In this document: in pieces, positions 1 to 33,041 of the stretch
Numbering within the stretch: the stretch's first letter is position 1
How the letters are laid out: each line of letters starts with the position of its first letter
IMG/VR virus record: IMGVR_UViG_3300035396_000152
Coordinates: 1 to 33,072 of that record
Length of the DNA stretch: 33,072 nt
Reading direction: 5' to 3' (one strand)
Source of the DNA: a virus
Lineage: Duplodnaviria > Caudoviricetes
Notes under the pieces: model-generated
What the model was told of the DNA's origin: nothing
Databases searched by the model: none
Seen by the model: the letters and a program-made list of their open reading frames with translations, nothing else
Translations under genes and position numbers: made by a program

Positions 1-148
1 CGTCGAGGCTGGCACCATCAAGGCTGGCTCCGTCGAGGCTGGCTCCAATTTTAACGGCTGCTTCAACAGTTTTTTTAATGCTGTTTTCTTCGGCTTCGTG
101 GCTAAAAATTATCTCTCCGCTAAACCTCGATAAAATGTCAATTTTCAC
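1..148 (-). CDS. Pentapeptide-repeat protein (N-terminal part; runs off the window)
   Basis: Not in ORF track. Manual translation from GTG at 148 (GGGGAG RBS upstream): MKIDILSRFSGEIIFSHEAEENSIKKTVEAAVKIGASLDGASLDGASLD, with the A-S-L-D-G pentapeptide repeating. Confidence 0.85.
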   Translation of the reverse strand, partial: MKIDILSRFSGEIIFSHEAEENSIKKTVEAAVKIGASLDGASLDGASLD

Positions 149-436: not shown

Positions 437-465
437 TTTTATTACTCCTTGTTAGTTGTTCTTTA

Positions 466-520
466 TGAGTATAAGATAACTACTCACTAATCAAAATGCA
501 AGTCTTTTTTTTATTTTTTG
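466..520 (-). promoter_or_regulatory. Sigma70-type promoter with overlapping operator-like inverted repeat
   Basis: Minus strand TTGCAT (501-496), 17-nt spacer, TATCTT (478-473), A-tract upstream; TGAGTA-N9-TACTCA (466-486) straddles the -10. Confidence 0.6.
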
Positions 521-675
521 AAAATATTTTTTTTGTCATTTTCCTCTTGAATAATCTGCCTGATAATTTCCATAGCCTTACCAAGCAGGTCAATGTGTTT
601 GATATTTGCGGTTTCAGCCTTGCATATTGCCAGTGTCAAGTGTGCATTGTCTAAAAGCTCTTTGATGGTTTTCAT
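511..675 (-). CDS. Small hypothetical protein (54 aa)
   Basis: Manual translation MKTIKELLDNAHLTLAICKAETANIKHIDLLGKAMEIIRQIIQEENDKKNIFKK; ATGA overlap with upstream ORF. Confidence 0.55.
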   Translation of the reverse strand: MKTIKELLDNAHLTLAICKAETANIKHIDLLGKAMEIIRQIIQEENDKKNIFKK

Positions 676-833
676 GATATCTTATCCAGCTTTTTATAAG
701 TTTCTTTTAGTGAAGCATGAATAATGTGCGCTTTTCTTTTGCACTCGTTTATGTCTGATTCTGTAGTTATAGAATCAGCAAGTGCCATAGGAACGATCAG
801 CTCTCTTCTAGTTAAATCAGCTATTATATTCAC
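672..833 (-). CDS. Small hypothetical protein
   Basis: Track ORF 672..860; start moved to GTG at 833 behind AGGGGG RBS. Confidence 0.5.
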   Translation of the reverse strand: MNIIADLTRRELIVPMALADSITTESDINECKRKAHIIHASLKETYKKLDKIS

Positions 834-864
834 ACTTACCCCCCTATTGTTTACTCTCACGGAA

Positions 865-1008
865 TTAAACCGCTCTCTCTTTATTAAATACGCTTATTTG
901 TTCAATTGCTTTCATGCAGCCTATTTTTTCTACTAGATTAGTAGTTTCACTTTTAAGTAAAGATAAGTCGTGTAGTACTTTTTCTCTTATGTAATCGGTT
1001 AGTGTCAT
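865..1008 (-). CDS. Small hypothetical protein (47 aa)
   Basis: Manual translation MTLTDYIREKVLHDLSLLKSETTNLVEKIGCMKAIEQISVFNKERAV; TGATG coupling to helicase stop. Confidence 0.5.
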   Translation of the reverse strand: MTLTDYIREKVLHDLSLLKSETTNLVEKIGCMKAIEQISVFNKERAV

Positions 1009-2324
1009 CATTTACCCCCAAACTGTTTATGTAAATTATCTTCTTTTTTATCTGCTTTCTTTTCTCTTTCAGTTTCGACAAACTTACTATACTGTAAAAA
1101 TCCATTAAAGTTTATTTCAACATCGCTTGCACCATCTCTCTGTATAATCATTGCATCAATATCTTTATGTGTCGAATCAATAGCCATAGGCGTTCCTCTA
1201 TTCGCATCTGTCAAAACTATTGCAGTATCAGCACATTCAAGTATTGCCTGAGAGCCTTTAAAGTATGAATAAACCGGATTGCCAGTTTTCTTTTCAGCTT
1301 CACCGGAAAGCTGTGATAAAATTATAAGCGCAATATTTTCATCTCTGGCAATATCAGAAAGGTCTGCCATAATATTTTCAAGTTCGTCAACTCTGCCATT
1401 TTTCCCGTTTCCACGCCCCCTCATACGCTGTACATAATCGACAACAACAAAATCAACACGCCCTTTATGTTTACGGCTCTTGATAACCGTTGAAATATAA
1501 GCAGGAGAAACGGAAGATTTATTGCTTATATATAACGGCTCATTCATATAGGAGCCTGATTGCTCAATAAGCCCGTCCATGTTTCGCTTAAATATTTCTC
1601 CATTATGCAAATGGTTTGTGTCCGTTTCTGTACGAACAGCCATTATACAAGCATGGATTGCAAAGGGTTGCATTTCCATTGAAAACCATATTCCGCTGTG
1701 TCCGTCTTGTAGTAGTCCACTTGTAAGATGTATGGCAAACCTAGATTTTCCGGTTTTCTTTAAGCCTCCGATTATGTACGTTCTACCTTTTTGCATGTTG
1801 TTAATAACATTATTTAACCTTAACCATGGTGTACGCATACCCATAATTTTATCTTTGTTCAAGCCTCGCTCTTTTACGCTTTCCCAAAAACCCATAACGC
1901 TGTGACCGTGCGAATATTCAACATCTTTTATGTTCAATAATGCAATATCGTTTACCCTTGTTTGCACCTGTGATATATCACACTCTTTATTGTCTATCTG
2001 GATTATGGATTCTGAAAGAGCAACACGCAACACCCTATTAATATAAGCCTCTTCCATTAGTTCTAAATGGTCAATAAAACTTTGTTTGCTTACAGCTTGT
2101 TCTACGCACTCCATGGCAGATATTGTTAATTCGGAGTTGCTTGTAGTAGCTCCGATAGTCGAAACTGATACTGATACTTTTTTGTCAAAAAGATCTTTTA
2201 TTGCTCTGAACAGTAAAATGTGATTGGCATTAGTAAAATGATTCTCCGATACCCTGTCGATAGCTCCAACTAGTACTTCTGGCCATTGTACCATACAACC
2301 CAAAACATATTTTTCGTTAATCAT
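1008..2324 (-). CDS. dnaB: DnaB-like replicative helicase
   Basis: N-terminal EKYVLG...HF...H.LLF.AI..L; Walker A GGLKKTGKS; FSMEM; Walker B VVVDYVQ; LSQL; GSQAILECAD. Start set at ATG 2324 behind GGAGG. Confidence 0.92.
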   Translation of the reverse strand: MINEKYVLGCMVQWPEVLVGAIDRVSENHFTNANHILLFRAIKDLFDKKVSVSVSTIGATTSNSELTISAMECVEQAVSKQSFIDHLELMEEAYINRVLRVALSESIIQIDNKECDISQVQTRVNDIALLNIKDVEYSHGHSVMGFWESVKERGLNKDKIMGMRTPWLRLNNVINNMQKGRTYIIGGLKKTGKSRFAIHLTSGLLQDGHSGIWFSMEMQPFAIHACIMAVRTETDTNHLHNGEIFKRNMDGLIEQSGSYMNEPLYISNKSSVSPAYISTVIKSRKHKGRVDFVVVDYVQRMRGRGNGKNGRVDELENIMADLSDIARDENIALIILSQLSGEAEKKTGNPVYSYFKGSQAILECADTAIVLTDANRGTPMAIDSTHKDIDAMIIQRDGASDVEINFNGFLQYSKFVETEREKKADKKEDNLHKQFGGK

Positions 2325-3030
2325 TAGGTTCCTCCGCATTTAATCTCTTGGCTTCTAAAAGTGAAAAGTTATTGCAAACATACCGGATAGATAAATTGTG
2401 AGTGTGAAATTTATCGCTGGCACAAAACACAACATTGTTGAAAAATCGCTCAATAGTCATATCTGGAAAATCTTGCAAAAACTGTTTAAGGGTTTTTACG
2501 TCTTTTCGATAATCCATGTATTTTACTTTTTTAACAGCCTCGTACCCTTCTCCGAATCTTCTAATGATTTCAGAAAAAAGAGAATGTGCTGGTACAGCAC
2601 TATCTTTCTTTTCTTTAATTCTTAAATTCTTTAATTCTTTAGATGTGTTCACTCGTTGTTCACTCGTTGTTCGGTCGTTGTTCACTCGTTGTTCATTTTG
2701 ATGTTCACTATCCTGATACTTCTCATAGTTAGTTATTGATATTAAACGATTTGTGGAAGTTATTTGTTGTTCAATTTGTTGTTCACTTTCCATCAATTTA
2801 AGAATACGGTCAACCTTACTCTCATTTACGCCTGTACATTCTGCGACTTGTTTTCTACCTGTTGTAAGTTGTCCATATAATACGGTTATACGCTTTCCTC
2901 CAAGCATGGCATCTTTTGGTGTATGTTTAGCTTGCAACAACAACCATACCCATACTGCTAAATAGTCAGGATCTGACATTCTTGGATTATCAAACATGCA
3001 TCGATACAGTTTAATCCAGCCTCTTTGCAT
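2317..3030 (-). CDS. Phage replication initiator (replisome-organiser / lambda O-like)
   Basis: GWIKLYR N-terminus, wHTH-like segment, LISITNYEKYQ motif, internal repeat linker, directly upstream of the helicase. Confidence 0.85.
   Translation of the reverse strand: MQRGWIKLYRCMFDNPRMSDPDYLAVWVWLLLQAKHTPKDAMLGGKRITVLYGQLTTGRKQVAECTGVNESKVDRILKLMESEQQIEQQITSTNRLISITNYEKYQDSEHQNEQRVNNDRTTSEQRVNTSKELKNLRIKEKKDSAVPAHSLFSEIIRRFGEGYEAVKKVKYMDYRKDVKTLKQFLQDFPDMTIERFFNNVVFCASDKFHTHNLSIRYVCNNFSLLEAKRLNAEEPND
2601..2790. repeat. Putative replication origin: 11-bp iterons plus AT-rich segment inside the initiator gene
   Basis: TGTTCACTCGT at 2646, 2657 and 2679, variant TGTTCGGTCGT at 2668, partial copies at 2690 and 2702, TTGTTGTTCA x2 near 2764-2786; adjacent TTCTTTAA-type 8-mers at about 2611-2642. 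Confidence 0.75.
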
Positions 3031-3053
3031 TAACTGATCACCTTATTATAGCA

Positions 3054-3148
3054 TGCTGCAGGGCAAGGTGGAGGCGCTCAAACCATACCTTTTTAATGCA
3101 GGGCAACCCTTACAGCAATTTATTTTTATCCTTGGATTGTGAGCGCCT
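3054..3148 (-). promoter_or_regulatory. Structured 5' leader of the initiator gene (pseudoknot topology)
   Basis: Minus-strand order A (AGGCGCTCA 3148-3140), B (TGCTGTAAGGG 3117-3107), A' (TGAGCGCCT 3080-3072), B' (CCCTGCAGCA 3063-3054). Confidence 0.55.
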
Positions 3149-3160
3149 TAGATACCAATA

Positions 3161-3190
3161 AACATAAACTCACATATTATTAAAAGTCAA
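3161..3190 (-). promoter_or_regulatory. Sigma70-type promoter for replication module
   Basis: TTGACT (3190-3185), 18-nt spacer, TATGTT (3166-3161), AT-rich upstream. Confidence 0.5.
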
Positions 3191-3310
3191 TCTTTATTTT
3201 CACTTTTGCGAAACATCCTTAATCTAAAATCAATAAGTATTTTATATCTCTTTTATTTACAAATACTTACATAATTAAAAATAATTATCAAAACTGCAAA
3301 TAAGATCTGC

Positions 3311-3347
3311 AAAAAGAATAATCCCCGCCTATTTTGTAAGCAGGGAT
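3311..3347 (-). terminator. Intrinsic terminator ending the late operon
   Basis: ATCCCTGCTTA-CAAAA-TAGGCGGGGAT stem (two G-U pairs) followed by TATTCTTTTT. Confidence 0.75.
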
Positions 3348-3384
3348 CTCGGGAGGTGTGTGAGAGTGTAAAGATCGTAATCTA

Positions 3385-3963
3385 CTATAAAATTTGTACT
3401 GCTGTCAAATGTATCTTGTATTTTTCAAATTCACCTGGCTTTGGAGCGATAACGGGCTTTCCAGTTTCCATATCAACAACAACTTTTTTTCCGGTGTCGA
3501 AAATGAATTGTGGCAGAATTCCGCAAATAACCAGATAGATGAAATAATATTCGGAACAGAAAAACTTTCTAGCATCCGCGCCAACCTTGATAAGAGCCTG
3601 TTTAAACAAGCTTTTGAAGTCATAAGGCTTTCCCACCTGTTCCAATGCCCAATCGATTCCTGCGTGCCTTAAACGCTCAAATTCAGGCTTCAGGGAACTC
3701 CAATAAACTTCACCATCAAAATTTTCCAATTGAACCGATAAAAGATTGTATCTTATTCCGTCCGGCTCTGCCTCCAGAGTGAAAACATGATTGCCCTCAT
3801 AACCTCCGTAGTTTTCCAGTACAAAAGCTATACCCGTATGATTAACTTTCTGCTTACTAAAGAATCGAATAATAGAACCTAATGCAGAGCGGGATCTCCA
3901 TTCCAGCATGTCACCAGTCTTGATTTGGTCTCTGATTTGTTTGTACGCAACAAGTGATTTCAC
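3385..3963 (-). CDS. Permuted papain-like NlpC/P60 (YiiX/YaeF, C92-like) enzyme
   Basis: KTGD motif, NHTG (His first), LEA, GKPYD and FFCSE (Cys last): the permuted His-before-Cys order. Confidence 0.85.
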   Translation of the reverse strand: MKSLVAYKQIRDQIKTGDMLEWRSRSALGSIIRFFSKQKVNHTGIAFVLENYGGYEGNHVFTLEAEPDGIRYNLLSVQLENFDGEVYWSSLKPEFERLRHAGIDWALEQVGKPYDFKSLFKQALIKVGADARKFFCSEYYFIYLVICGILPQFIFDTGKKVVVDMETGKPVIAPKPGEFEKYKIHLTAVQIL

Positions 3964-3991
3964 AATTATTTTCCTTTACCTCTAAGGTAAA

Positions 3992-4351
3992 TCATTTTCT
4001 TCCCATAAATGCAATAGAGAAGTGATTACCGTCCGGCTTCGGTGTGCCGTCTGAACTCTTAAACCTACCACCCCACGACCCGCCCATCGATTCCCATAGT
4101 TCACCTATTTCTTTATAGTCCTCTGTTTTTGTTAACAATATTCCATTTTTAAAAACATTTAAATCCATGGCCAGCCTATCTAGATGGACGCTTTTAAGGC
4201 TCCCCACTTTTCTATCGGCGTATATTTTAACCATTTCAGGGGGCCTCCAGGCCTCGCCAAGCGTGCAGTCATAGCCAATATGTTTTATTCTCAAAATGAA
4301 ATCAGCAATAAGAACGGAGAACTCTTTTTGTTTTTCTAGTAGTAAAGACAT
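3992..4351 (-). CDS. M15-family metallopeptidase endolysin
   Basis: GEAWR, S.H...LA.D zinc-ligand motif, WGGRF, DGNHFS. Confidence 0.9.
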   Translation of the reverse strand: MSLLLEKQKEFSVLIADFILRIKHIGYDCTLGEAWRPPEMVKIYADRKVGSLKSVHLDRLAMDLNVFKNGILLTKTEDYKEIGELWESMGGSWGGRFKSSDGTPKPDGNHFSIAFMGRK

Positions 4352-4362
4352 AATATTTCCTT

Positions 4363-4791
4363 TTATTTAACCAGCGCAACGATTGTAGTGATCACAGAAA
4401 GCACGCTTATGATTATCAAAAACACTCGCTGCTCTGCATTGTTACTTGGCTTTTCTTCAATAAGTTTTTGCACATTATTCTCCAATCTCTCTTCTAGTAT
4501 TGGCATGGTTACGACACTTGATAATTTGCTCTCTATCTTTTCCAGTCTGACATAGTCGCGATTGCTTCGTTTTTCTAAATCTGTCAACCCTTTTTCAAGG
4601 GAATCAATTTTTCTTGAATATAAATCGGAAAGCATGTTTAACTTGCTGTTTAACGTCTCTACTGTCATTGTTACGATTTGCAGTCTATCCGTTACGTTAT
4701 TAAGCGCTTTTGTTGTTGTTTCTAAGCTTATCGTAAGTTGACCAATAACATAATCGGTAGAATTTTTATTTAGTTCATGTTCTTCTGGCAT
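4363..4791 (-). CDS. Coiled-coil protein with C-terminal transmembrane helix (possible holin-like protein)
   Basis: Heptad-rich body; hydrophobic tail VFLIIISVLSVITTIVALVK; immediately upstream of endolysin. The holin role is positional inference. Confidence 0.5.
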   Translation of the reverse strand: MPEEHELNKNSTDYVIGQLTISLETTTKALNNVTDRLQIVTMTVETLNSKLNMLSDLYSRKIDSLEKGLTDLEKRSNRDYVRLEKIESKLSSVVTMPILEERLENNVQKLIEEKPSNNAEQRVFLIIISVLSVITTIVALVK

Positions 4792-4794
4792 TTT

Positions 4795-5415
4795 TTACTC
4801 CTCAAATAAGCGGTCTATATCTTCGGCTGATATTTCTACTGCGGTATGTTTTATGGGGTCTCTTTTACCTGTCATACTCATGCTATATGTGCAAGAAAGG
4901 TCCCCACATAAAACGCAAGACATTTCTTCGACAACTATATCTGATCTATTCATTCTCATATTTATTATTGCTGCACAAGAACCTTTATTGTAGTCGCATA
5001 GTTCCCTTGAATACTGAGTGATGTCAACAGGGCTTATACGAAATATAAGGTTACCGGATTCTTCCGTTAACGTACAGTTTAAATTCTTATTGATATAGGA
5101 AGTCATTATGTAAGGAAGAAATTTCTTGAGCGCAATCATCGGAAGAACTTTAAGTATCCTTGTTTGTTTTGTGCTATGTCGATATTGCTCCATTGTTGCA
5201 TTGTATCCTAAAGTATAGTTGTCAACGTATAATTTCTTTCCAACAAAAGACTGAATCTGATTCCACTCCTCAAAAGAAATCCATCTTGTATCGGACAATA
5301 ACTTAGTTGCTATTGTGCTTATCTGCGATAAAACATACTGACTATCTAACCCACAACTAGATGCGTAGCTGAGAAGAAGTTTTGTTGCGTAAGATGATAT
5401 TGTGTTCTTGTCCAT
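4795..5415 (-). CDS. Stand-alone V4R/HNOB-like small-ligand-binding domain protein
   Basis: C-terminal CDYNKG...VVEEMSCVLCGDLSCTY fits the V4R C...E..C...GD..C pattern; N-terminal LLSYA...G.D...VL...L.D..WIS resembles sensor N-termini of bacterial signalling proteins. Confidence 0.65.
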   Translation of the reverse strand: MDKNTISSYATKLLLSYASSCGLDSQYVLSQISTIATKLLSDTRWISFEEWNQIQSFVGKKLYVDNYTLGYNATMEQYRHSTKQTRILKVLPMIALKKFLPYIMTSYINKNLNCTLTEESGNLIFRISPVDITQYSRELCDYNKGSCAAIINMRMNRSDIVVEEMSCVLCGDLSCTYSMSMTGKRDPIKHTAVEISAEDIDRLFEE

Positions 5416-5422
5416 AGTAATC

Positions 5423-7735
5423 TTATAAAATTGTTATTACGGCGGAACTATTAGTCTCTAAGGTATATGTAATATAAAAACCTCCGCCCGAAGGAGTTAG
5501 GGAGGTGTCTGCTGTTACTTGGATTGTCACTTTGCTTGTTCCATCTACGGTTGAAAACAATCCCGTTAATGTTCCGGTTATCTTACGTTCGACTTCGAGA
5601 CCACTAAGTATATCGCTATCTACAACAGTATCTTTTACTCCGGCTGTGTAACTTGCTAATCCAGAAATAGTTTGATAATTTCCTGAGCCATCATGAACAT
5701 GAATCTCATATGAAAGCACACCAGAACACGTTTGTCCATTGTTAGGTAATGCTATTTCGAAAAGAGATGTTGCCACATTGTCTGTTAAGACTTTAACTAA
5801 TTTTTTGTAAGGTATAGGTAAAAGCGTATTGCCACTATAATCTTTTATTACTTTATCTTGAGCTAACCATATGTCTTTGTTGGTTGTTGTTTTATCGCTT
5901 TCCATTAGTAGTTTTGCAGGAATGCTTCCGCTTGCGCTAGAGACCCACTCATCTACCGCAAGTATAGGGTTTTCATGCCACGCCCTTCCAGTAAATATTA
6001 CATCTACTGTACCGGTAGGTATGAATAGCGCATAGTATGTGTGCGCTGAGACCGAAGGAACTGTGTATGTTAGTGTTCTTAAATAAACCTCGATATCTCC
6101 GGACACAATAAATTTACTTACTTGTGCGTTATATTGCACGTTATCAATTACCGATACGTCTACTGTTGTGGTTTCATTAGAGGAGTGTATGTCAAATCTA
6201 CCTTCGGTTCCGCACTTAATAGATTCGTCTGTTGTTCTACATAGTAGAATGTAGTGTCTATTGTCGTCTGTCGTTCCCAACTTCTTTCCGTAAATAGGTC
6301 TTAGTGATTGGCCAAGAGCTGATACTGTTAGATCTCCGGCTGAAACAGCTCCAGCAACTGTCAATTTCTGTGTAGGCGCTTCACCAAGACCGACATTTCC
6401 TAACTGGTCTTCTATAATATTTGCTTCACGATACAGTACAACACTCGAAACGCTTCCGGATGCAATAACTGTCGGATATGATACCCACGCTCTGCCTGAG
6501 AAAAAAATGTCAAAAGTTGATGTACTAGCGGGAACAATCTTTAATGCAAAATAACTAACTGCTGAATACGTTAATGTGACAAGTGACACTTCGCATCTAT
6601 CTTTATGCACAAAAAATTCTTTCGCTTCTAACATAGTTGGACTATTTTGTATATCGATATCAACACTAGCAAAGGAGTCATAGTCTCCATAAATGCTAAT
6701 TCTCCCCACCGTCCCACTTCGACTTACGCTCTCTTCTGCTTTACACAATAACACATAGCTAGTCGTCACAGCTGTAGCCGTTCCTATTTTTTTACCAAAT
6801 ACTGGACGAAGAGAAACGCCATAACCTCCAGAATCTGGAGTTAACTCGCCGAATGCCGCAGCTCCGGCAACTTCTAGTTTTTCTGTTGGTAATGCTGTAC
6901 CAATACCAACATTATTACCATCTATTATGATTGCTCCAGAATTGGCGTTAGCTCCTAGTGCCAATTGTATCCCAGCAGCGGCAGTAATTCGCATTTCATT
7001 CCCACTTGTCGTATAATCCTGAAACCACAATTTATATCCGGTAGTTCCTCCAATAATCAGGTCTCCCGATGATATGCGAATACTTCCACCAGCTACATGA
7101 AATTTATCTGTTGGTGATGCTGTACCAATGCCAACTTTATCTAAACTGCCAACGGCGGTTAAAAGATTGGCATCCGTATCTCCTTCAACTCTAAAGTCAA
7201 CGCTTGCACCAGAATCATTAATAGTCACAGCTCCGTCTAATAGCGCACCAGTAGATTTTATATTGCCTACAATGTGTAGTTTTTCTGTTGGTTCTAAGGT
7301 TCCCACACCTACACGATTATCTCCAGCGTCTATAAATACATTCGGCGCCACGCTGGAAGTTCCCCATATCGCAGTGTCAACGTCATCAATATTAGCGTTG
7401 ATGGTTATACGACCGGAAGCATACAAATATTCCAAAACTTTAACGCTGTTTGCTAATAAATATGATGCTAACGTATCATTGATTACTAGTTTGTTATTAA
7501 CATCGGTTCCTATTGATACATCTCCCACCGCGGTAAGAGCCCCTGTTGTAAGCGCTCCTATCGATCTGGTCGGAGTTCCGCTTCCATCAAGCGTTAAAGC
7601 TTCATACTCTACAGTGCCTGCGTCAAAATATTTTAGCCGCTTATTTGTAGAATCAAAACCCAACAGCAAAGGTCTTTTTGAGGCTGCAATATTAACTGCT
7701 GAATCTTCAAGATTTTTAAATATGATATTTGCCAT
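5423..7735 (-). CDS. Tail fibre / receptor-binding protein
   Basis: Repeated (N/R/K)VG(I/V/L)G...PT(E/D/Q)K(L/F).V.G fibre motifs; last gene of the tail module. Confidence 0.8.
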   Translation of the reverse strand: MANIIFKNLEDSAVNIAASKRPLLLGFDSTNKRLKYFDAGTVEYEALTLDGSGTPTRSIGALTTGALTAVGDVSIGTDVNNKLVINDTLASYLLANSVKVLEYLYASGRITINANIDDVDTAIWGTSSVAPNVFIDAGDNRVGVGTLEPTEKLHIVGNIKSTGALLDGAVTINDSGASVDFRVEGDTDANLLTAVGSLDKVGIGTASPTDKFHVAGGSIRISSGDLIIGGTTGYKLWFQDYTTSGNEMRITAAAGIQLALGANANSGAIIIDGNNVGIGTALPTEKLEVAGAAAFGELTPDSGGYGVSLRPVFGKKIGTATAVTTSYVLLCKAEESVSRSGTVGRISIYGDYDSFASVDIDIQNSPTMLEAKEFFVHKDRCEVSLVTLTYSAVSYFALKIVPASTSTFDIFFSGRAWVSYPTVIASGSVSSVVLYREANIIEDQLGNVGLGEAPTQKLTVAGAVSAGDLTVSALGQSLRPIYGKKLGTTDDNRHYILLCRTTDESIKCGTEGRFDIHSSNETTTVDVSVIDNVQYNAQVSKFIVSGDIEVYLRTLTYTVPSVSAHTYYALFIPTGTVDVIFTGRAWHENPILAVDEWVSSASGSIPAKLLMESDKTTTNKDIWLAQDKVIKDYSGNTLLPIPYKKLVKVLTDNVATSLFEIALPNNGQTCSGVLSYEIHVHDGSGNYQTISGLASYTAGVKDTVVDSDILSGLEVERKITGTLTGLFSTVDGTSKVTIQVTADTSLTPSGGGFYITYTLETNSSAVITIL

Positions 7736-7736
7736 T

Positions 7737-8513
7737 TTAGTAAGTCCCCACTGACATGACGCCAGTATTGAATGTATTTTGCTTTATATCGCCAGTTGAG
7801 TATGTATCTTGCCAAGTTTCCGAATCCGGAACACTTGTTGCACCTATCTCCAACAGTTTTAAACCTATTGAAGGATTGCCTCCAACAGTGGTATTTATTT
7901 TTGTTTTAACAATTAACCAAACCTTATTGTTAAGAGCAGAAGAATTAAGTATTGATATGTTCGTTGATACTTGGTCTCCTATTTCAGCCTTAAGCATGGT
8001 ATACGCACACTCAATATCAATCATTGCCATAGGTTGCCAGCGCTGTAAAACGATTGCCCTTGCTAATCTTTCAGCCGTAAAAGCGTGCCTAATTCCATCG
8101 GCCTCAATGGTCAATATATTTTCTGATTCTCTAGCTTCATAAGCGGACTGTAGGAGTCCTGAATAATACTGCCAGTTTCCGTTTGTATCAATAATGCTCC
8201 AATTGTGTAAATTATTTGTGTTGCCAATGCGATAACAGTAAGAAGTAGCTGCAAAAGAGTTATTTTCTGGTAGCACTTTTTGATACTTGATTACAATTCC
8301 ACTTATCGTATCTTCGATATTTGTATAGCTAATCTTAACTGCTGGTTTGTTCCTTTTAAGAAGTATATCAGTATCGGCAATTTCATAAGCGATAGTACCG
8401 TCTAGATCGGTTCTAGCAAGTGCAAGCTTACCATTATATTTTTCATAGGCAAAGCCAGCGCTATTTTTTAAAAATAAATTCATGCACTCTTTAAATTTTG
8501 GTCTACCACTCAT
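7737..8513 (-). CDS. Tail tip / hub protein (C-terminal-type domain)
   Basis: TIEADGIRH..TA..LA and EIGDQV motifs typical of phage tail-tip C-termini; ATGA overlap and AGGAG RBS. Confidence 0.65.
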   Translation of the reverse strand: MSGRPKFKECMNLFLKNSAGFAYEKYNGKLALARTDLDGTIAYEIADTDILLKRNKPAVKISYTNIEDTISGIVIKYQKVLPENNSFAATSYCYRIGNTNNLHNWSIIDTNGNWQYYSGLLQSAYEARESENILTIEADGIRHAFTAERLARAIVLQRWQPMAMIDIECAYTMLKAEIGDQVSTNISILNSSALNNKVWLIVKTKINTTVGGNPSIGLKLLEIGATSVPDSETWQDTYSTGDIKQNTFNTGVMSVGTY

Positions 8514-10324
8514 AAATCAACTCCTGAATAAATAGCAGTAGCAATCTTCCAGTCCGCCCTATCTGTATAGTAAGCGTCAAAACTTGTTTCATCAAGGTTA
8601 AGATATGACATAGAGGGTACAGATGTACGACAAAAATCCTCTACTATAGAAGATGGGTTTGTTACCAAAGTATCAGCTAAGTCATTAAAATAATTTATTG
8701 CTATTTTTCTTCCTGTGTTTCTTGCATACATTTTTACAGAAGTTAAATCAGCTTGAAACAATACTTTTATTTCAATCGAAATTATTTTAAGTATTAAAGT
8801 CATTACTTGATGGGGTGCAGAAAAAGTACCTCTAGCAACAAATGGATTGATTGTGAGTCCGCCTAGAAAAGACTCTAATGACGTTGAGTCAAACCCAGAA
8901 ACTTCTAGCTCTTCATCAAACGGTAGTTCTTGGTCTGGATCGGTTGTATATAGCGTGGGAGATAAGTAACTACCTCCTTTGTCGGCGTAAGCTATATTAA
9001 AACCTATTGCCGCACTGGCAACGTTGCCCCCCGTAGAGTCCGTTACTTTATTGTATGTTCCTATAAATCTAACTTTTGCAGAAGCTACATTAAAATCAGT
9101 TGACAATACCGAGTCACAAGAAGGAGAAAAAATAAAACCAGTGTACTTTGGATTGCTGGCAACCGTTCGGTGTCCTATTGTCAAAATCTGATTGCCACCA
9201 AAAAGCATTCCCAAACCAATAAAAGTTCCAGGCAAGCTACCAAGAAAAGGGTAAGCTAATGGCATTTGTCCGAAATTTTTTGCAGTCTTTATAGACAATC
9301 CTATTTCTGTGCTAGCTTTTCTATTTATTGCCCCACCCATATCTATTATTTTAACCGTGGTGCCAATTGCATGAGACGCTAAAACGCTATCGTATGCCGC
9401 TCTTGCACACCAAAGAACATAACCCGTATAGGGCGTATCCACATTATAAAGAGTTTTTGTTGTTTTAGCTATTAGAGGAAGTATTTCGTTGTCTACCATG
9501 AGACAATACGACTTGCTAGCAATATCGATATCGTTATAAACTGTTTCTGATATTTCCACCATCTTATTGTTATAGTTTACCGAATCAAGAACATACCGAA
9601 CCAGTGGAAAAGAGGCTACAGCTTTCAATATTTTTCCGTCTATTACGTTGTCTAGTTCATCGCTGTTGCCAGAAATAAATTGATATCCCCTTTTTGACGT
9701 TTTATCATAAAACCATAAAGATGCTGAGTCTGGCAAGTATCCAGCTATACCATAATAATAATATAAGACGTTGCTACTTGCCATTACAATAGGACAAAAA
9801 GCAAAATCGTCAGACCACACGCCGTTTACTATTGGATATATTTTCCCAGCATCTTCCTGATAGGCATCAGGCACAAAGTATCCTATTTCCGTATCAAACT
9901 GCTTTAATGTACCAATACATTCAATCTTAATTTTATGCAAATCGTTTTTATCAATAGCATTTATTTTTCCAGTAAAAAACACCTCACTTGTTAATATTGA
10001 CATGGTAGTTCCGTAACCCATACGAATTTCAACCGTTCTACCAACAAGATTATTTTGAGTAATGTTTCCATCTGTATTATAAATCTCAATTGATACGCTT
10101 GGAGTTTTTGCAAACGTCTCCTTATAAACATCAATACTTTGCTCAATATCGGATATATCAACAAGTCTACCGGCCTTTACATCATAGCCTGCAAGCGAAG
10201 CTGTGGGGATAGTTCCAAATGCCATTTGTGTAAAAGTATCAGATGTGTTAGGCTTTATGACTACAAGCCAGTAACAAGCACCGCCTGCTAAAATAGCGTT
10301 AAAGCCAGCGGAAAAGGTTCTCAT
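8510..10324 (-). CDS. Tail tip / baseplate hub protein
   Basis: VFFTGKI, GKIYPIVNG and NPSSIVE...LDETSF motifs; follows tape measure and Dit-like gene. Confidence 0.65.
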   Translation of the reverse strand: MRTFSAGFNAILAGGACYWLVVIKPNTSDTFTQMAFGTIPTASLAGYDVKAGRLVDISDIEQSIDVYKETFAKTPSVSIEIYNTDGNITQNNLVGRTVEIRMGYGTTMSILTSEVFFTGKINAIDKNDLHKIKIECIGTLKQFDTEIGYFVPDAYQEDAGKIYPIVNGVWSDDFAFCPIVMASSNVLYYYYGIAGYLPDSASLWFYDKTSKRGYQFISGNSDELDNVIDGKILKAVASFPLVRYVLDSVNYNNKMVEISETVYNDIDIASKSYCLMVDNEILPLIAKTTKTLYNVDTPYTGYVLWCARAAYDSVLASHAIGTTVKIIDMGGAINRKASTEIGLSIKTAKNFGQMPLAYPFLGSLPGTFIGLGMLFGGNQILTIGHRTVASNPKYTGFIFSPSCDSVLSTDFNVASAKVRFIGTYNKVTDSTGGNVASAAIGFNIAYADKGGSYLSPTLYTTDPDQELPFDEELEVSGFDSTSLESFLGGLTINPFVARGTFSAPHQVMTLILKIISIEIKVLFQADLTSVKMYARNTGRKIAINYFNDLADTLVTNPSSIVEDFCRTSVPSMSYLNLDETSFDAYYTDRADWKIATAIYSGVDL

Positions 10325-29913: not shown

Positions 29914-30096
29914 TCACTTACCCCTCCCTTTCTTTGTTTCAATTATCTTTCTTTCCCCTGGCTTAACTTCTCTCCCCTTATCGTTAATCCACGCGCAACG
30001 CTCATATCCACGCTTCCAGCTTCTAACGCAGTGCTTTGTGCATATATCGGCGCTCTCTGAATGCTGACAATCTTTACCGCTGCATGGACAATACAT
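29914..30096 (-). CDS. Small Cys-rich protein
   Basis: GGAGG RBS; six Cys in 60 aa. Confidence 0.55.
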   Translation of the reverse strand: MYCPCSGKDCQHSESADICTKHCVRSWKRGYERCAWINDKGREVKPGERKIIETKKGRGK

Positions 30097-30241
30097 TTGC
30101 TACCTCCGGCACTGGCTTAACCCTCACTATCGCACCGCCCTTACGACATGAACAATCCTTATCTGTACAACGGAAATAGTAGTCGCTGTTTTTGCTATTG
30201 TTGTGTTCAGCGGGTGATCCGCATTTTTCACAGTATGACAT
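30074..30241 (-). CDS. Small zinc-ribbon-like protein (55 aa)
   Basis: Not in track; MSYCEKCGSPAEHNNSKNSDYYFRCTDKDC...; TAATG coupling to the upstream gene. Confidence 0.55.
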   Translation of the reverse strand: MSYCEKCGSPAEHNNSKNSDYYFRCTDKDCSCRKGGAIVRVKPVPEVANVLSMQR

Positions 30242-30702
30242 TAACGCGCTCCCCTTTTTATAGCAACATCATACTGCCAGCTACGCCCCCAGAACATCAT
30301 TACGGCATCGCGTCCGTGCTCGGAGGTTTTTTGTGTCCATCCGGTTAATCTCGCAAACGCAACAGGATCGTTTTTGGTTTTGTTTCCTTTACGTGGAGGT
30401 ACGGCAATGTATTCGATTTTGTTTCGATACATCCACTCCATAAGTAAAGATGCGTCTCGTTTATTTTTACCGACGCCCTGTGAAATTTTACCGCGCACCG
30501 CATGGCTTAATCCCTGGAATTTTGCGTACAACGATTTATTAACGTTTGGGTTTTCTATATAAACCAAAACGGCCAGCCCAGATTCTTGGTACTTTTCTAG
30601 TGTGCCTATGATATCCCAAAAAGTTGTCGTGATTACAGCGCTCAAGTGTCCATCGATTAAAATAGCTAGTCCTTTTGATGGGTCGACTCCGATAATTATC
30701 AC
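30241..30702 (-). CDS. RuvC-like (RNase H fold) nuclease / Holliday junction resolvase
   Basis: IIIGVDP, VYIENP, TGW...SEH.RDA acidic catalytic pattern; GTG start behind GAGGAGG. Confidence 0.75.
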   Translation of the reverse strand: MIIIGVDPSKGLAILIDGHLSAVITTTFWDIIGTLEKYQESGLAVLVYIENPNVNKSLYAKFQGLSHAVRGKISQGVGKNKRDASLLMEWMYRNKIEYIAVPPRKGNKTKNDPVAFARLTGWTQKTSEHGRDAVMMFWGRSWQYDVAIKRGAR

Positions 30703-30748
30703 AAACCGCCTCCTCTCATAAGTATTTGAAAATAACATTTACCGCCCA

Positions 30749-31165
30749 TCATTTACCCCCTTTAATTATTATCAGCTCTTGACGTGCTTTAACTATCTCT
30801 TTCGCAAAATTTTTATTATACGCTATGTGGTTCTCGTTGTTAAGCTCTTCGTTAATTTCTTCTAAGTGTCGCAAACACTTTTCAATGGATAATGTTTTCA
30901 TTGGCTTTGTTAGTTGCTTTGTTGCGCTGCCTTTAATTTTCTTTATACATTTTGGACACAAGCACTTATTAGGAGAAACATAGACCGTAGAACATCCATT
31001 GCACTTCCACTCTTCACAATTAGTCCCTTGTATATGTCCTAAATATTTTATTTTGTCAAGTCCAATAGTTTTCTCCATATCCTCTATTCTCTTCTCTATT
31101 TTCCTTTTAAGCAAAAATGTTTTTCTTATTTTTGTGAATATTTTTTCAGCATCCTTGACTTCCAT
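30749..31165 (-). CDS. Hypothetical protein with CxxC...CxxC
   Basis: GAGGAGG RBS; CNGC and CPKC. Confidence 0.7.
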   Translation of the reverse strand: MEVKDAEKIFTKIRKTFLLKRKIEKRIEDMEKTIGLDKIKYLGHIQGTNCEEWKCNGCSTVYVSPNKCLCPKCIKKIKGSATKQLTKPMKTLSIEKCLRHLEEINEELNNENHIAYNKNFAKEIVKARQELIIIKGGK

Positions 31166-31218
31166 TTTTTCCTCCTCGAAAGTTTACTTGCGTTCTGTCT
31201 TGCACAAAATGTTATTGC

Positions 31219-31270
31219 ATCTAAGTTTTAGCATGATGCCGTTTTAATGGCATTCATGCTATTGTTGGGC
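31219..31270 (-). repeat. attC-like site E (degenerate R')
   Basis: GCCCAAC AATA GCATGAATGCC ATTAAAAC GGCATCATGC TAAAA CTTAGAT; the GTT core reads CTT. Confidence 0.65.
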
Positions 31271-31687
31271 GTTGTTGCCCACAGTGCTAGGGATGGCACT
31301 CTTAATTTCACATGGTGTTACTACTTCAATATCAAAAGTCCTTGTTACTTCCGATGTATAGCTTAGGATTGAACCACACTCGCCGCATTCATAATCTTTG
31401 CTTTCGTCTTTCGCTTCCCACGAGTCATGATTTTCACAGCCACATACAGGACATTTTATATAGGGCTCATAGTACAATTCTTTTTCATCCATATTTATAT
31501 TGATAGGCTTCAAAAAACCAACATTCTGCTTTAGTAGTGCGCTTGCTATTTTGTATTTTTTGTCACCGATAGATACTATGTCTCCAAACTCTACATCATC
31601 TCGCTCACACAAGATATGAGCAGAAGATGGGTCGAAGTTTTCAGTGTAAATTATGTGTTTGTCTTGTGGTCTCAGTATTAGCTTCAT
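31259..31687 (-). CDS. Zinc-ribbon-containing hypothetical protein (cassette gene)
   Basis: CPVCG...DSWE...ECGECG; stop falls inside attC-like site E. Confidence 0.75.
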   Translation of the reverse strand: MKLILRPQDKHIIYTENFDPSSAHILCERDDVEFGDIVSIGDKKYKIASALLKQNVGFLKPININMDEKELYYEPYIKCPVCGCENHDSWEAKDESKDYECGECGSILSYTSEVTRTFDIEVVTPCEIKSAIPSTVGNNAQQ

Positions 31688-31723
31688 TGTCTCTTTCCTT
31701 TCTTCTTAGCGCCACTCTTAATT

Positions 31724-31882
31724 TTATTTTCTGCCTTTGCATTTTTCTCTGTCTTCATTACATCCTTTACATGGGTCTCCTTGTGCATTCACTAATCCAA
31801 AACAAATTTGACCAGGAAGAGTACAGGTTTTTGGCACATAACCTTGACGAATACATAAATCTAACATGATGTCTTTTTCCAT
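31724..31882 (-). CDS. Small Cys-rich protein (52 aa, cassette gene)
   Basis: Not in track; AAAGGA RBS; MEKDIMLDLCIRQGYVPKTCTLPGQICFGLVNAQGDPCKGCNEDREKCKGRK. Confidence 0.7.
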   Translation of the reverse strand: MEKDIMLDLCIRQGYVPKTCTLPGQICFGLVNAQGDPCKGCNEDREKCKGRK

Positions 31883-31913
31883 AATTCCTTTCTTTGTCTT
31901 GTGGTGGTTTTGC

Positions 31914-31968
31914 GTACAACGTTTGCCGCTTTGTGAAGCGTACTAGTTTTATAAAGCGGCTGTTGAGT
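31914..31968 (-). repeat. attC-like site D
   Basis: ACTCAAC A GCCGCTTTAT...ACAAAGCGGC AAAC GTTGTAC. Confidence 0.7.
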
Positions 31969-31991
31969 GCTGTTGTAAATCGCATTCCATA

Positions 31992-32195
31992 TTATTCCTG
32001 CGCGGCGATTCTTTTTCCGTACTCCAGGCCGTACAGAAACATACGGAAAGCATTGTTTGTCTCACCGTGCTGATACCAGTTGCCAACAGGTGCGTTTATT
32101 TCTTTGTCAAACCGATAACGGCCAAACCCATAGTTAGAAACTGTTCTCTCGAAAAACTCGACCGCTTCGTACCACTCTTTTGATTTTGGTTTCAT
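31992..32195 (-). CDS. Hypothetical protein (cassette gene)
   Basis: GAGGAG RBS; 67 aa. Confidence 0.75.
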   Translation of the reverse strand: MKPKSKEWYEAVEFFERTVSNYGFGRYRFDKEINAPVGNWYQHGETNNAFRMFLYGLEYGKRIAAQE

Positions 32196-32253
32196 TTTCT
32201 TCTCCTCGCCGCGCCTATAATAAATTGTATTGTCTTGGCGCGAATTAAATTTC

Positions 32254-32344
32254 CTACAACGTATCTGCTATGGTGAAGTTGCGTACTCGCAATTTGGGTC
32301 GGAGCTTGCGGAAGCAAGCGTAGCCACCATAGCTTTTGTTGGAT
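32254..32344 (-). repeat. attC-like site C (long central region)
   Basis: ATCCAAC AAAA GCTATGGTG...CACCATAGC AGATAC GTTGTAG. Confidence 0.7.
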
Positions 32345-32603
32345 GCTGTGCTTTTGCGCGTGCCTTTGGTTCTTTCTTAACCATTATTTTGAAATAAATT
32401 GTTTTTATGTCATACCCTCTTTTCTCAAGTTCCTCGACAAAGGAATCGTCAAATTTAATACCTATATCTGCACCAATGTCAATGCTTGGTCTTTTGCTAC
32501 ATAAAACATTATTGAGTAAAGCCCCATCACACCGTCTTGGATAGCGGAACAGAATATCCTTTTGTCTTTTATCCCACATTGCTGATAATGAAAACTTCCC
32601 CAT
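32268..32603 (-). CDS. Hypothetical protein (cassette gene, reads into attC-like site)
   Basis: Start MGKFSL behind AAAGGA; SFVEELEKRGYDIKT. Confidence 0.7.
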   Translation of the reverse strand: MGKFSLSAMWDKRQKDILFRYPRRCDGALLNNVLCSKRPSIDIGADIGIKFDDSFVEELEKRGYDIKTIYFKIMVKKEPKARAKAQHPTKAMVATLASASSDPNCEYATSP

Positions 32604-32658
32604 CTTATTTCCTTTCGAGTGTGAAACACGCGCTACTGTCTTCGCGCAAAACAATTGC

Positions 32659-32716
32659 TTACAACGTATCAGGCATGATGCCGTGTTCCTGCATGGCAAT
32701 CATGCCGTTGTTGTGT
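32659..32716 (-). repeat. attC-like site B
   Basis: ACACAAC AACG GCATGATTGCC...GGCATCATGC CTGATAC GTTGTAA. Confidence 0.75.
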
Positions 32717-32930
32717 GTTGTTTGAGCGATGCAACCAGGGATGGTTGCTCTTCTGCCTCAATTATATCCTTCATAGTTATTCCCGAACTCCCACTTAATG
32801 GGTGCTTCATCGTTCTATATGCAAACTTAGCTTTGTTGCATTTAGTACATCTACAAATCTGAATCAGAAAATGGGCGTTGTAGTTTATAAAATCTACATC
32901 TCTCCATTTTGTGTATTTATGAAAGCACAT
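32700..32930 (-). CDS. Small C-H...C-x2-C protein (cassette gene)
   Basis: MCFHKYTKW...QICRCTKCNK; stop lies inside attC-like site B. Confidence 0.65.
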   Translation of the reverse strand: MCFHKYTKWRDVDFINYNAHFLIQICRCTKCNKAKFAYRTMKHPLSGSSGITMKDIIEAEEQPSLVASLKQHTTTA

Positions 32931-32980
32931 TTTTATTCTTTCTGTGCAACACGATGTTGCACTCTTATCGCTCAAATTTC

Positions 32981-33041
32981 ACACAACGTTGGAGCATGAT
33001 GCTGTGCCGCTTTGGGCATTGCATTCATGCGGTTGTTGTGC
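32981..33041 (-). repeat. attC-like site A
   Basis: GCACAAC AACC GCATGAATGC...GCATCATGC TCCAAC GTTGTGT. Confidence 0.75.

Follow-up and report, generated by a model that had tools for sequence, protein, structure and literature searches.

A cassette array of small phage genes bounded by hairpin sites, with variant junctions at G^TT and a probable Xer-like route of joining

The phage contig and its cassettes

The window, i.e. the whole stretch of DNA that was analysed (33,072 nt), is the entire linear record IMGVR_UViG_3300035396_000152 of a tailed phage, with a CheckV completeness of about 63 %. It encodes terminase, portal, protease, major head, tape measure, endolysin, DnaD-like and DnaB proteins, together with a DNA methyltransferase and a Holliday-junction resolvase, and all genes are on the minus strand. 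The array lies at the right end of the window, upstream of the resolvase gene (Table 1), and the contig end cuts it just upstream. Proteins identical to those of the window are also recorded on a contig of 38,554 nt, so at least 5 kb of the genome lies beyond the window, probably including the front of the array. At the other end (1-80, minus strand) the contig breaks inside a pentapeptide-repeat-like gene (GASLD-type repeats), which is probably why the assembly has a gap there. A 206-aa gene at 4795-5415 (minus strand), between tail-fibre and lysis genes, is odd cargo for a phage: its predicted fold resembles the sensor region at the N terminus of GAF, HD and cyclase signalling proteins (TM about 0.7-0.77), and the fold matches, mostly from Thermodesulfobacteriota and Myxococcota clusters, give a weak hint of the host, as a lead only.

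An exact-motif scan for copies of sites A, B and E identified one near-identical copy of this phage (L003, 99.9 % over 5,136 nt); the other matches were attributed to chance (two inside one gene, two in bacterial genes), and further exact-motif scans for close copies of these sites gave no matches. No close relative was found in a terminase search, no cultured phage matched the array at the DNA level, and no RNA dataset was listed with the array stretch. Among capsid relatives (42-50 % identity), no cluster of three sites was present in 83 loci (80 capsid loci and others), and 29 records of distant capsid relatives gave 38 pattern matches, compared with 64 in the reversed control, and no array.

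Table 1 Features of the array and the adjoining core gene, listed from the contig end inwards
Feature	Position	Strand	Length (bp)	Description
Site A	32981..33041	-	61	crossover G 32987; closes cassette 1, the gene of which is truncated at the contig end
Cassette 2	32665..32986	-	322	leader, 76-aa Cys-rich phage-type ORF (32930-32700) and site B
Site B	32659..32716	-	58	crossover G 32665; a different site is joined here in a population variant
Cassette 3	32260..32664	-	405	111-aa ORF (32603-32268), which extends into site C and belongs to a phage protein family
Site C	32254..32344	-	91	branched; crossover G 32260; cassette 4 has another hairpin in front of it in runs from four studies
Cassette 4	31920..32259	-	340	67-aa ORF (32195-31992) and site D; weak terminal repeat
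Site D	31914..31968	-	55	crossover G 31920; covariance model E 2.6e-4
Cassette 5	31225..31919	-	695	52-aa ORF (31882-31724), 142-aa zinc-ribbon ORF (31687-31259) and site E
Site E	31219..31270	-	52	C replaces the crossover G at 31225
Cassette-like unit	30749..31224	-		leader and 138-aa ORF (31165-30749); continues into core early/late genes
Holliday-junction resolvase gene	30241..30738	-		first core gene behind the array; phrog_1770, E 1.3e-14

Five hairpin sites of 52-91 bp, all on the minus (coding) strand, separate the small phage-type genes, at the positions, on the strand and with the lengths that an earlier note on this DNA had given. Its description of the genes was also borne out. The stop codon falls within the site in three of the four complete cassettes (sites B, C and E) and 24 nt before site D in cassette 4. 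Each gene follows a leader of 38-66 nt with a Shine-Dalgarno-like run, weak in cassette 2. The cargo is of phage type: the protein of cassette 2 gave 8 matches, that of cassette 3 has 26 homologs and gave 5 cultured-phage records and 22 viral loci, and the larger protein of cassette 5 matches two PHROG families (phrog_14328 and phrog_6504); the ORF of cassette 4 had no Pfam or PHROG match. All leaders (31165-32986) carry AAGA 21-25 nt past the crossover, and four of the five form a small hairpin that encloses or closely follows this motif and precedes the ribosome-binding site. No closing site was found behind the 138-aa ORF, and a terminal-repeat remnant of a sixth cassette near 30740 was rejected as not significant (152 of 1000 shuffles).

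Cassettes 2 and 3 have private terminal inverted repeats, of 21 nt (32967-32987 with 32710-32730, 15/21 matches) and 23 nt (32643-32665 with 32338-32360, 14/21 matches), respectively, neither of which was equalled in 2000 shuffles, and the pairing of each cassette's own ends exceeds any cross-pairing. The terminal repeats of cassettes 4 and 5 were not significant (shuffle p 0.07 and 0.42). When the junctions of excised circles were modelled for cassettes 2 and 3, they folded at -29.3 and -31.1 kcal/mol, about 8 kcal/mol better than in the array (-21.4 and -22.7 kcal/mol). The outer part of the terminal repeat can alternatively pair locally, a possible switch.

Structure of the sites and their family

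On the coding strand the sites share CAAC, a 4-nt spacer and an arm starting with GC, followed at the far end by GTTGT in sites A-D, while site E has a shorter spacer and CTT; this is the layout that had been described. AAC and GTT thus stand at the two ends of four of the five sites, E being the exception. The spacer of site E is 2 nt shorter than that of an intact twin from another contig, and with its broken core this site is likely to be recombinationally dead. One unpaired base in the left arm, claimed for three sites, is present in A, B and E, and none in C and D. In sites A-D the arms are out of register by 2-3 positions according to a single script; in site A, which scored E 1.2e-6 with the covariance model described below, the offset is 2 and the bulge lies at +10. 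Outer-arm bases common to all five sites are C at -11, A at -10 and C at -8, and G at +8, A at +10 and A at +11; C -11 and A +11 imply a G-T pair at position 11 on the bottom strand.

The non-coding (bottom) strand folds better than the top strand in all five sites (A, -14.9 and -13.1 kcal/mol; B, -14.8 and -12.6; C, -19.0 and -16.8; D, -11.1 and -7.6; E, -10.2 and -10.1, i.e. by only 0.1 kcal/mol), with bottom-strand z-scores of -2.7 to -5.2. The long stem of site D is formed on the non-coding strand only, via G-T pairs. A first, loose attC scan gave 17 matches, no better than the 6-17 in controls. With strict hairpin criteria, 4 sites were recovered from the 2,072-nt array, compared with at most 1 in 300 resampled sequences; genes in the rest of the window gave 3 long matches.

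Scanning viral contigs for the site motif produced 37 loci, 14 of which were judged real by eye (three of these share one site). In an alignment of nine branched sites, including site C, whose left arm is misaligned by one column, 10 of 17 pairs are changed on both sides, and none of 500 shuffles reached the covariation score. The compensatory change of the arms on which the earlier note had made its reading depend is thus present. The family covariance model was built on these nine sites. Within the 33 kb of the window its matches were confined to the five sites; site C belonged to the training set, and site E scored only E = 0.15. Over 35 sources it gave 61 matches (E <= 1), 5 in the window array, 55 in 12 family loci and 1 in L090, and no match in L091, L092, 14 capsid-relative loci or 5 integrase loci. 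The same family, with compensatory changes, extends to 12 other viral records. Further examination covered 38 matches (the window, L090 and two partial matches excluded), of which 3 were out of register and 35 were scored: 30 have CAAC/GTTG and in 28 the bottom strand folds better, the register offset is 3 in 26, 4 in 6 and 2 in 3, and the length of family sites ranges from about 50 to 180 bp. The conserved outer arms also occur in most family sites, in counts that are partly circular, the bases being part of both pattern and model. In L144, 8 of 14 cassettes pair better with their own ends than in any cross-pairing; in L151 this holds for 1 of 6.

In the 86-kb phage record L144, at least 15 sites lie within about 9 kb (446-9622), with no recombinase detected, and many cargo ORFs run through the sites, gaining look-alike C-terminal peptides. 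Among the 22 viral loci with a homolog of the cassette 3 protein, L090 has it in opposite orientation between two sites of the same build, and in L091 it adjoins weaker sites; no convincing site was found at the others. In L090 (299-939) and in the cultured Polaribacter phage P12002L (L157, 30005-39248), sites of the same build point away from their genes, and cassette genes can therefore be inverted relative to the site.

These properties bear on two alternative readings of the hairpins. If they were RNA-level elements (terminators, processing sites or cassettes like the PeSL of T4-like phages) whose likeness promotes shuffling, their stability as RNA with flanks (-11.6 to -30.9 kcal/mol) would be expected, and modular shuffling of PeSL with mini-circles has been described (Arbiol 2010, PMC2839356). 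PeSL are likewise repeated hairpins between accessory genes, but as described there they consist of a sigma-70 promoter and a terminator. The coding strand of the array has no terminator-like site and no promoter excess, Rfam gave no relevant match to the sites, the transcribed strand folds worse, the sites of L090 and P12002L face away from their genes, and the variant junctions described below fall at a fixed core triplet with unlike sites upstream. Such an explanation is largely refuted, and a link to Flavo-1 or any Rfam family was rejected for want of a match.

The second reading is recombination of double-stranded DNA of the Xer/dif type, in which the palindromes would be paired enzyme-binding arms and their folding incidental. 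The 11-nt outer arms conserved in all five window sites and most family sites, which we take to resemble Xer arms, agree with it, as do the 6-nt spacer before GTT and the Xer-like enzyme of L151 (see below). It is nevertheless very improbable, given that the inner arms vary yet keep pairing, that the sites reach from about 50 to 180 bp and that one strand folds better.

Variant junctions in microbial-mat populations

The array stretch is present in six public microbial-mat metagenome runs from five studies, and the contigs of all six were compared (individual runs are called X1 to X5 where needed); parts of the array without coverage in low-depth runs were excluded. Five junctions were counted, among the pieces listed, at which contigs otherwise near-identical to the phage depart from it. 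At the first, contigs of X1, X2, X3 and X5 (four studies) match the window up to 32262, 2 nt from the G of site C, and then continue into one common, different upstream hairpin. Read depth in X1 was 14.4 downstream of the junction, 3.8 on the window path and 4.9 on the alternative path. The X2 contig is a variant of this very array because it follows the window for 550 nt, through cassette 4 and site D, and diverges only in cassette 5. A search of viral contigs for the alternative sequence upstream of site C gave no match; this sequence may be the site of another cassette or an entry site. At the second junction, a contig of X5 is identical over 208 nt (32462-32669) and then enters a different site-like arm at site B. 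The third, in X4, joins 31222 to 31918 with 2 letters in common, which corresponds to the exact absence of cassette 5; this joint is a single contig with 23 nt on its short side, of a class that carries a method warning.

The other two junctions are off-site. A contig of X3 lacks 30741-31503 (joint 30740/31504), with no site at either end, and contigs of X2 and X3 diverge at 29948. The X3 gap takes out site E and the 138-aa gene. Three of the five junctions among the pieces listed thus lie 0-4 nt from G^TT, for which a rough p of 3e-6 was calculated with 5-nt windows, windows and events having been chosen by the analyst. The earlier note had proposed mobile units of one or two genes and had named breakpoints at G^TT in relatives as a check; exchange at G^TT agrees with the proposal, and the check came out mixed, positive at three junctions and negative at 30740/31504 and 29948. 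Circular cassette junctions (back-joints), which it had also suggested looking for, were not present among the listed contig pieces of the six runs, in assemblies of a kind that drops rare forms.

Short matches from other molecules were left out of the count. A related 44-nt piece in X1 ends exactly at the G of site B (32665), with TA instead of AC before GTT, and in X2 the inner part of site E (31230-31267) occurs in another context with an intact GTTG end. Other such pieces are a leader piece (32601-32632) and pieces at 30844, 32166-32203, 32383 and 32442-32479.

The variant junctions mark past joining of cassettes rather than present-day joining in this phage. Exchange at G^TT could in principle have taken place elsewhere or long ago, the present variation being due to homologous reshuffling of cassette strings between phages and to illegitimate deletions, since both routes would leave the same junction at the edge of a shared cassette. 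The two off-site junctions, the broken site E, the circles not seen in the listed contig pieces and the 29 records of distant capsid relatives without the array are all compatible with this. We regard it as improbable: three different on-site junctions coexist in one population with flanks that are 99-100 % identical, and sites A-C with their terminal repeats are intact. It would also keep the site family real and only relocate the reaction.

Candidate recombinase and relation to known systems

As had been noted from the sequence, the window encodes no integrase: the contig, which is about 63 % complete, gave no tyrosine recombinase in searches with PF00589 and for relatives of the L151 recombinase, and no intI, attI or Pc was found beside the array in the contig, which stops just upstream of it. 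A tyrosine recombinase occurs in 1 of 14 family records and in none of the three that are at least 90 % complete. In the one record, L151, it lies directly upstream of such an array. Its best match is XerA-like (174.8 bits, cut-off 220), with IntI at 114 bits (cut-off 265), and it is without the IntI insertion that is present in a true IntI, a domain of roughly 35 residues given as the mark of IntI (Cury 2016, PMC4889954). A recombinase with 34 % identity on a Chryseobacterium plasmid (L155) is followed by co-directional genes with sites that look alike in build by eye; these gave no significant model score and no confirmation by script. In both (L151, 6300-6345; L155, 6860-6925) a palindromic stretch followed by GTTG lies directly after the Xer-like gene, a candidate entry site. 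Two cases, one phage and a plasmid whose sites were read by eye, support the link to an Xer-like enzyme, there being no recombinase in the contig and only one among the 14 family records.

Clusters of attC sites in phages are already published, with 17 CALINs in 10,705 phage genomes, and IntI1 recombined five of six phage sites tested, one of them from P12002L (Qi et al. 2023, PMC9892861). The main rival to our reading is that the array is an ordinary phage CALIN whose attC sites are genuine though atypical and are acted on in trans by a host IntI. Its cassettes lie in the same direction, promoterless and with no integrase nearby, and the AAC/GTT ends, unpaired spacer, variable top, better folding of the bottom strand and G^TT crossover all fit attC as characterized by Bouvier (2009, PMC2727003). 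The same account gives only AAC and GTT as conserved, and a classical TJE1 site also has CAAC, so the CAAC/GTTG core is no peculiarity, as the earlier note had thought it to be. Sites A, B and C fall within the attC length range of about 57-142 nt, and D and E are slightly short. Most family records are without a recombinase of their own, and loss of the extrahelical bases is described as lowering attC x attI recombination with residual activity kept, rather than abolishing it, the G bulge being essential for attC x attC deletion (Bouvier 2009, PMC2727003).

The claim that the layout defines integron attC sites was not supported, however. The extrahelical G of the classical L'' box, seen as C at +9 on the top strand, is absent from all five window sites and from all 35 scored family sites, and the arms are offset by 2-4 positions rather than 0, a register unlike that of IntI1-active phage sites. 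When genome records were analysed by script, three TJE1 sites had offset 0 and a C bulge at +9, and P12002L_attC1 had offset 3 and an A bulge, like window sites A-D; this comparison left out the PH101 sites and P12002L_attC2, which recombined with IntI1. P12002L_attC1 is the site that failed with IntI1 (Qi et al. 2023, PMC9892861), a single site. Five such sites are present in the regions of P12002L that were scanned, with no PF00589 match; none scored significantly with the family model, and they are thus of the same build and not of the same sequence family. The window sites further differ from attC in their 11-nt conserved outer arms, the phage-type cargo, private terminal repeats of 21-23 nt instead of the usual 9-11 nt, and the sole recombinase beside a related array (L151), which is without the IntI domain. 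Recombination by a host IntI is therefore considered unlikely, more probable as it is than any of the other alternatives. An 11-base stretch ending in AAC in TJE1 attC1 (L158, 240-250) is identical to that of site C, and judged by this arm classical and window-type sites are not cleanly separable.

The array behaves like an integron cassette array and is not one of classical attC sites, a class in which it was not placed because the G bulge was looked for and was absent. The explanation we favour, and hold to be rather probable, is a phage gene-cassette array joined at G^TT, likely by an Xer-like tyrosine recombinase and not IntI, acting on folded single-stranded hairpins; the enzyme would likely come from the host or from the missing part of the genome. 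The single-stranded non-coding strand of a site would fold so that AAC pairs with GTT and the two inner arms pair with each other, the size of the loop being free. Cutting at G^TT would release a cassette of leader, gene and site, and in the excised circle the cassette's own ends may lengthen the outer stem to about 21-23 bp, so that circles would insert more readily than cassettes leave the array. Cassettes may enter at the upstream end and decay downstream, as suggested by the long terminal repeats in cassettes 2-3, their weakness or absence in 4-5 and the broken core of site E. Transcription would come from an upstream phage promoter, with a ribosome-binding site for each gene.

Two further systems are similar in part. 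The rAID-1 clusters of Bacteroidales (Ross et al., bioRxiv 10.1101/471110), compared here by description only, have co-directional genes behind a XerD-like recombinase, an order shared with L151 and L155, and intergenic repeats called 'reminiscent of integrons'; as described, their cargo is chromosomal immunity genes of gut bacteria, unlike the phage-type cargo of the window, and membership is set by a recombinase more than 44 % identical to the B. fragilis enzyme. Insertions at attG and SALINs (Loot et al., bioRxiv 10.1101/2022.09.11.507474) likewise bring in cassettes without an integron platform and could explain the origin of the array, but are reported there as demonstrated for IntI with classical attC only. 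Neither this family of sites nor its exchange in a phage population was found described in the literature searched, in which most subscription journals were not covered. The breakpoint evidence inside one phage population is novel; the rAID-1 motif and the other CALINs of Qi et al. may bear on this novelty.

A long-standing question is how phages acquire and exchange their many small accessory genes where long homology is lacking, and the named sites and exact crossover points make one such route testable. The test is feasible now, as the cultured phage P12002L has sites of the same build. If an Xer-like enzyme without the hairpin-reading domain of IntI does act on folded strands, integron-type chemistry would extend beyond the IntI family, and such arrays would be misclassified or overlooked by present attC finders. 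In its widest form, for and against which we find the balance even, the picture would be of unrelated phages sharing a pool of hairpin-bounded cassettes through an IntI-independent, Xer-like single-strand system, in which the cassettes' own ends steer direction and the enzyme is mostly borrowed in trans, the present population having been caught reshuffling.
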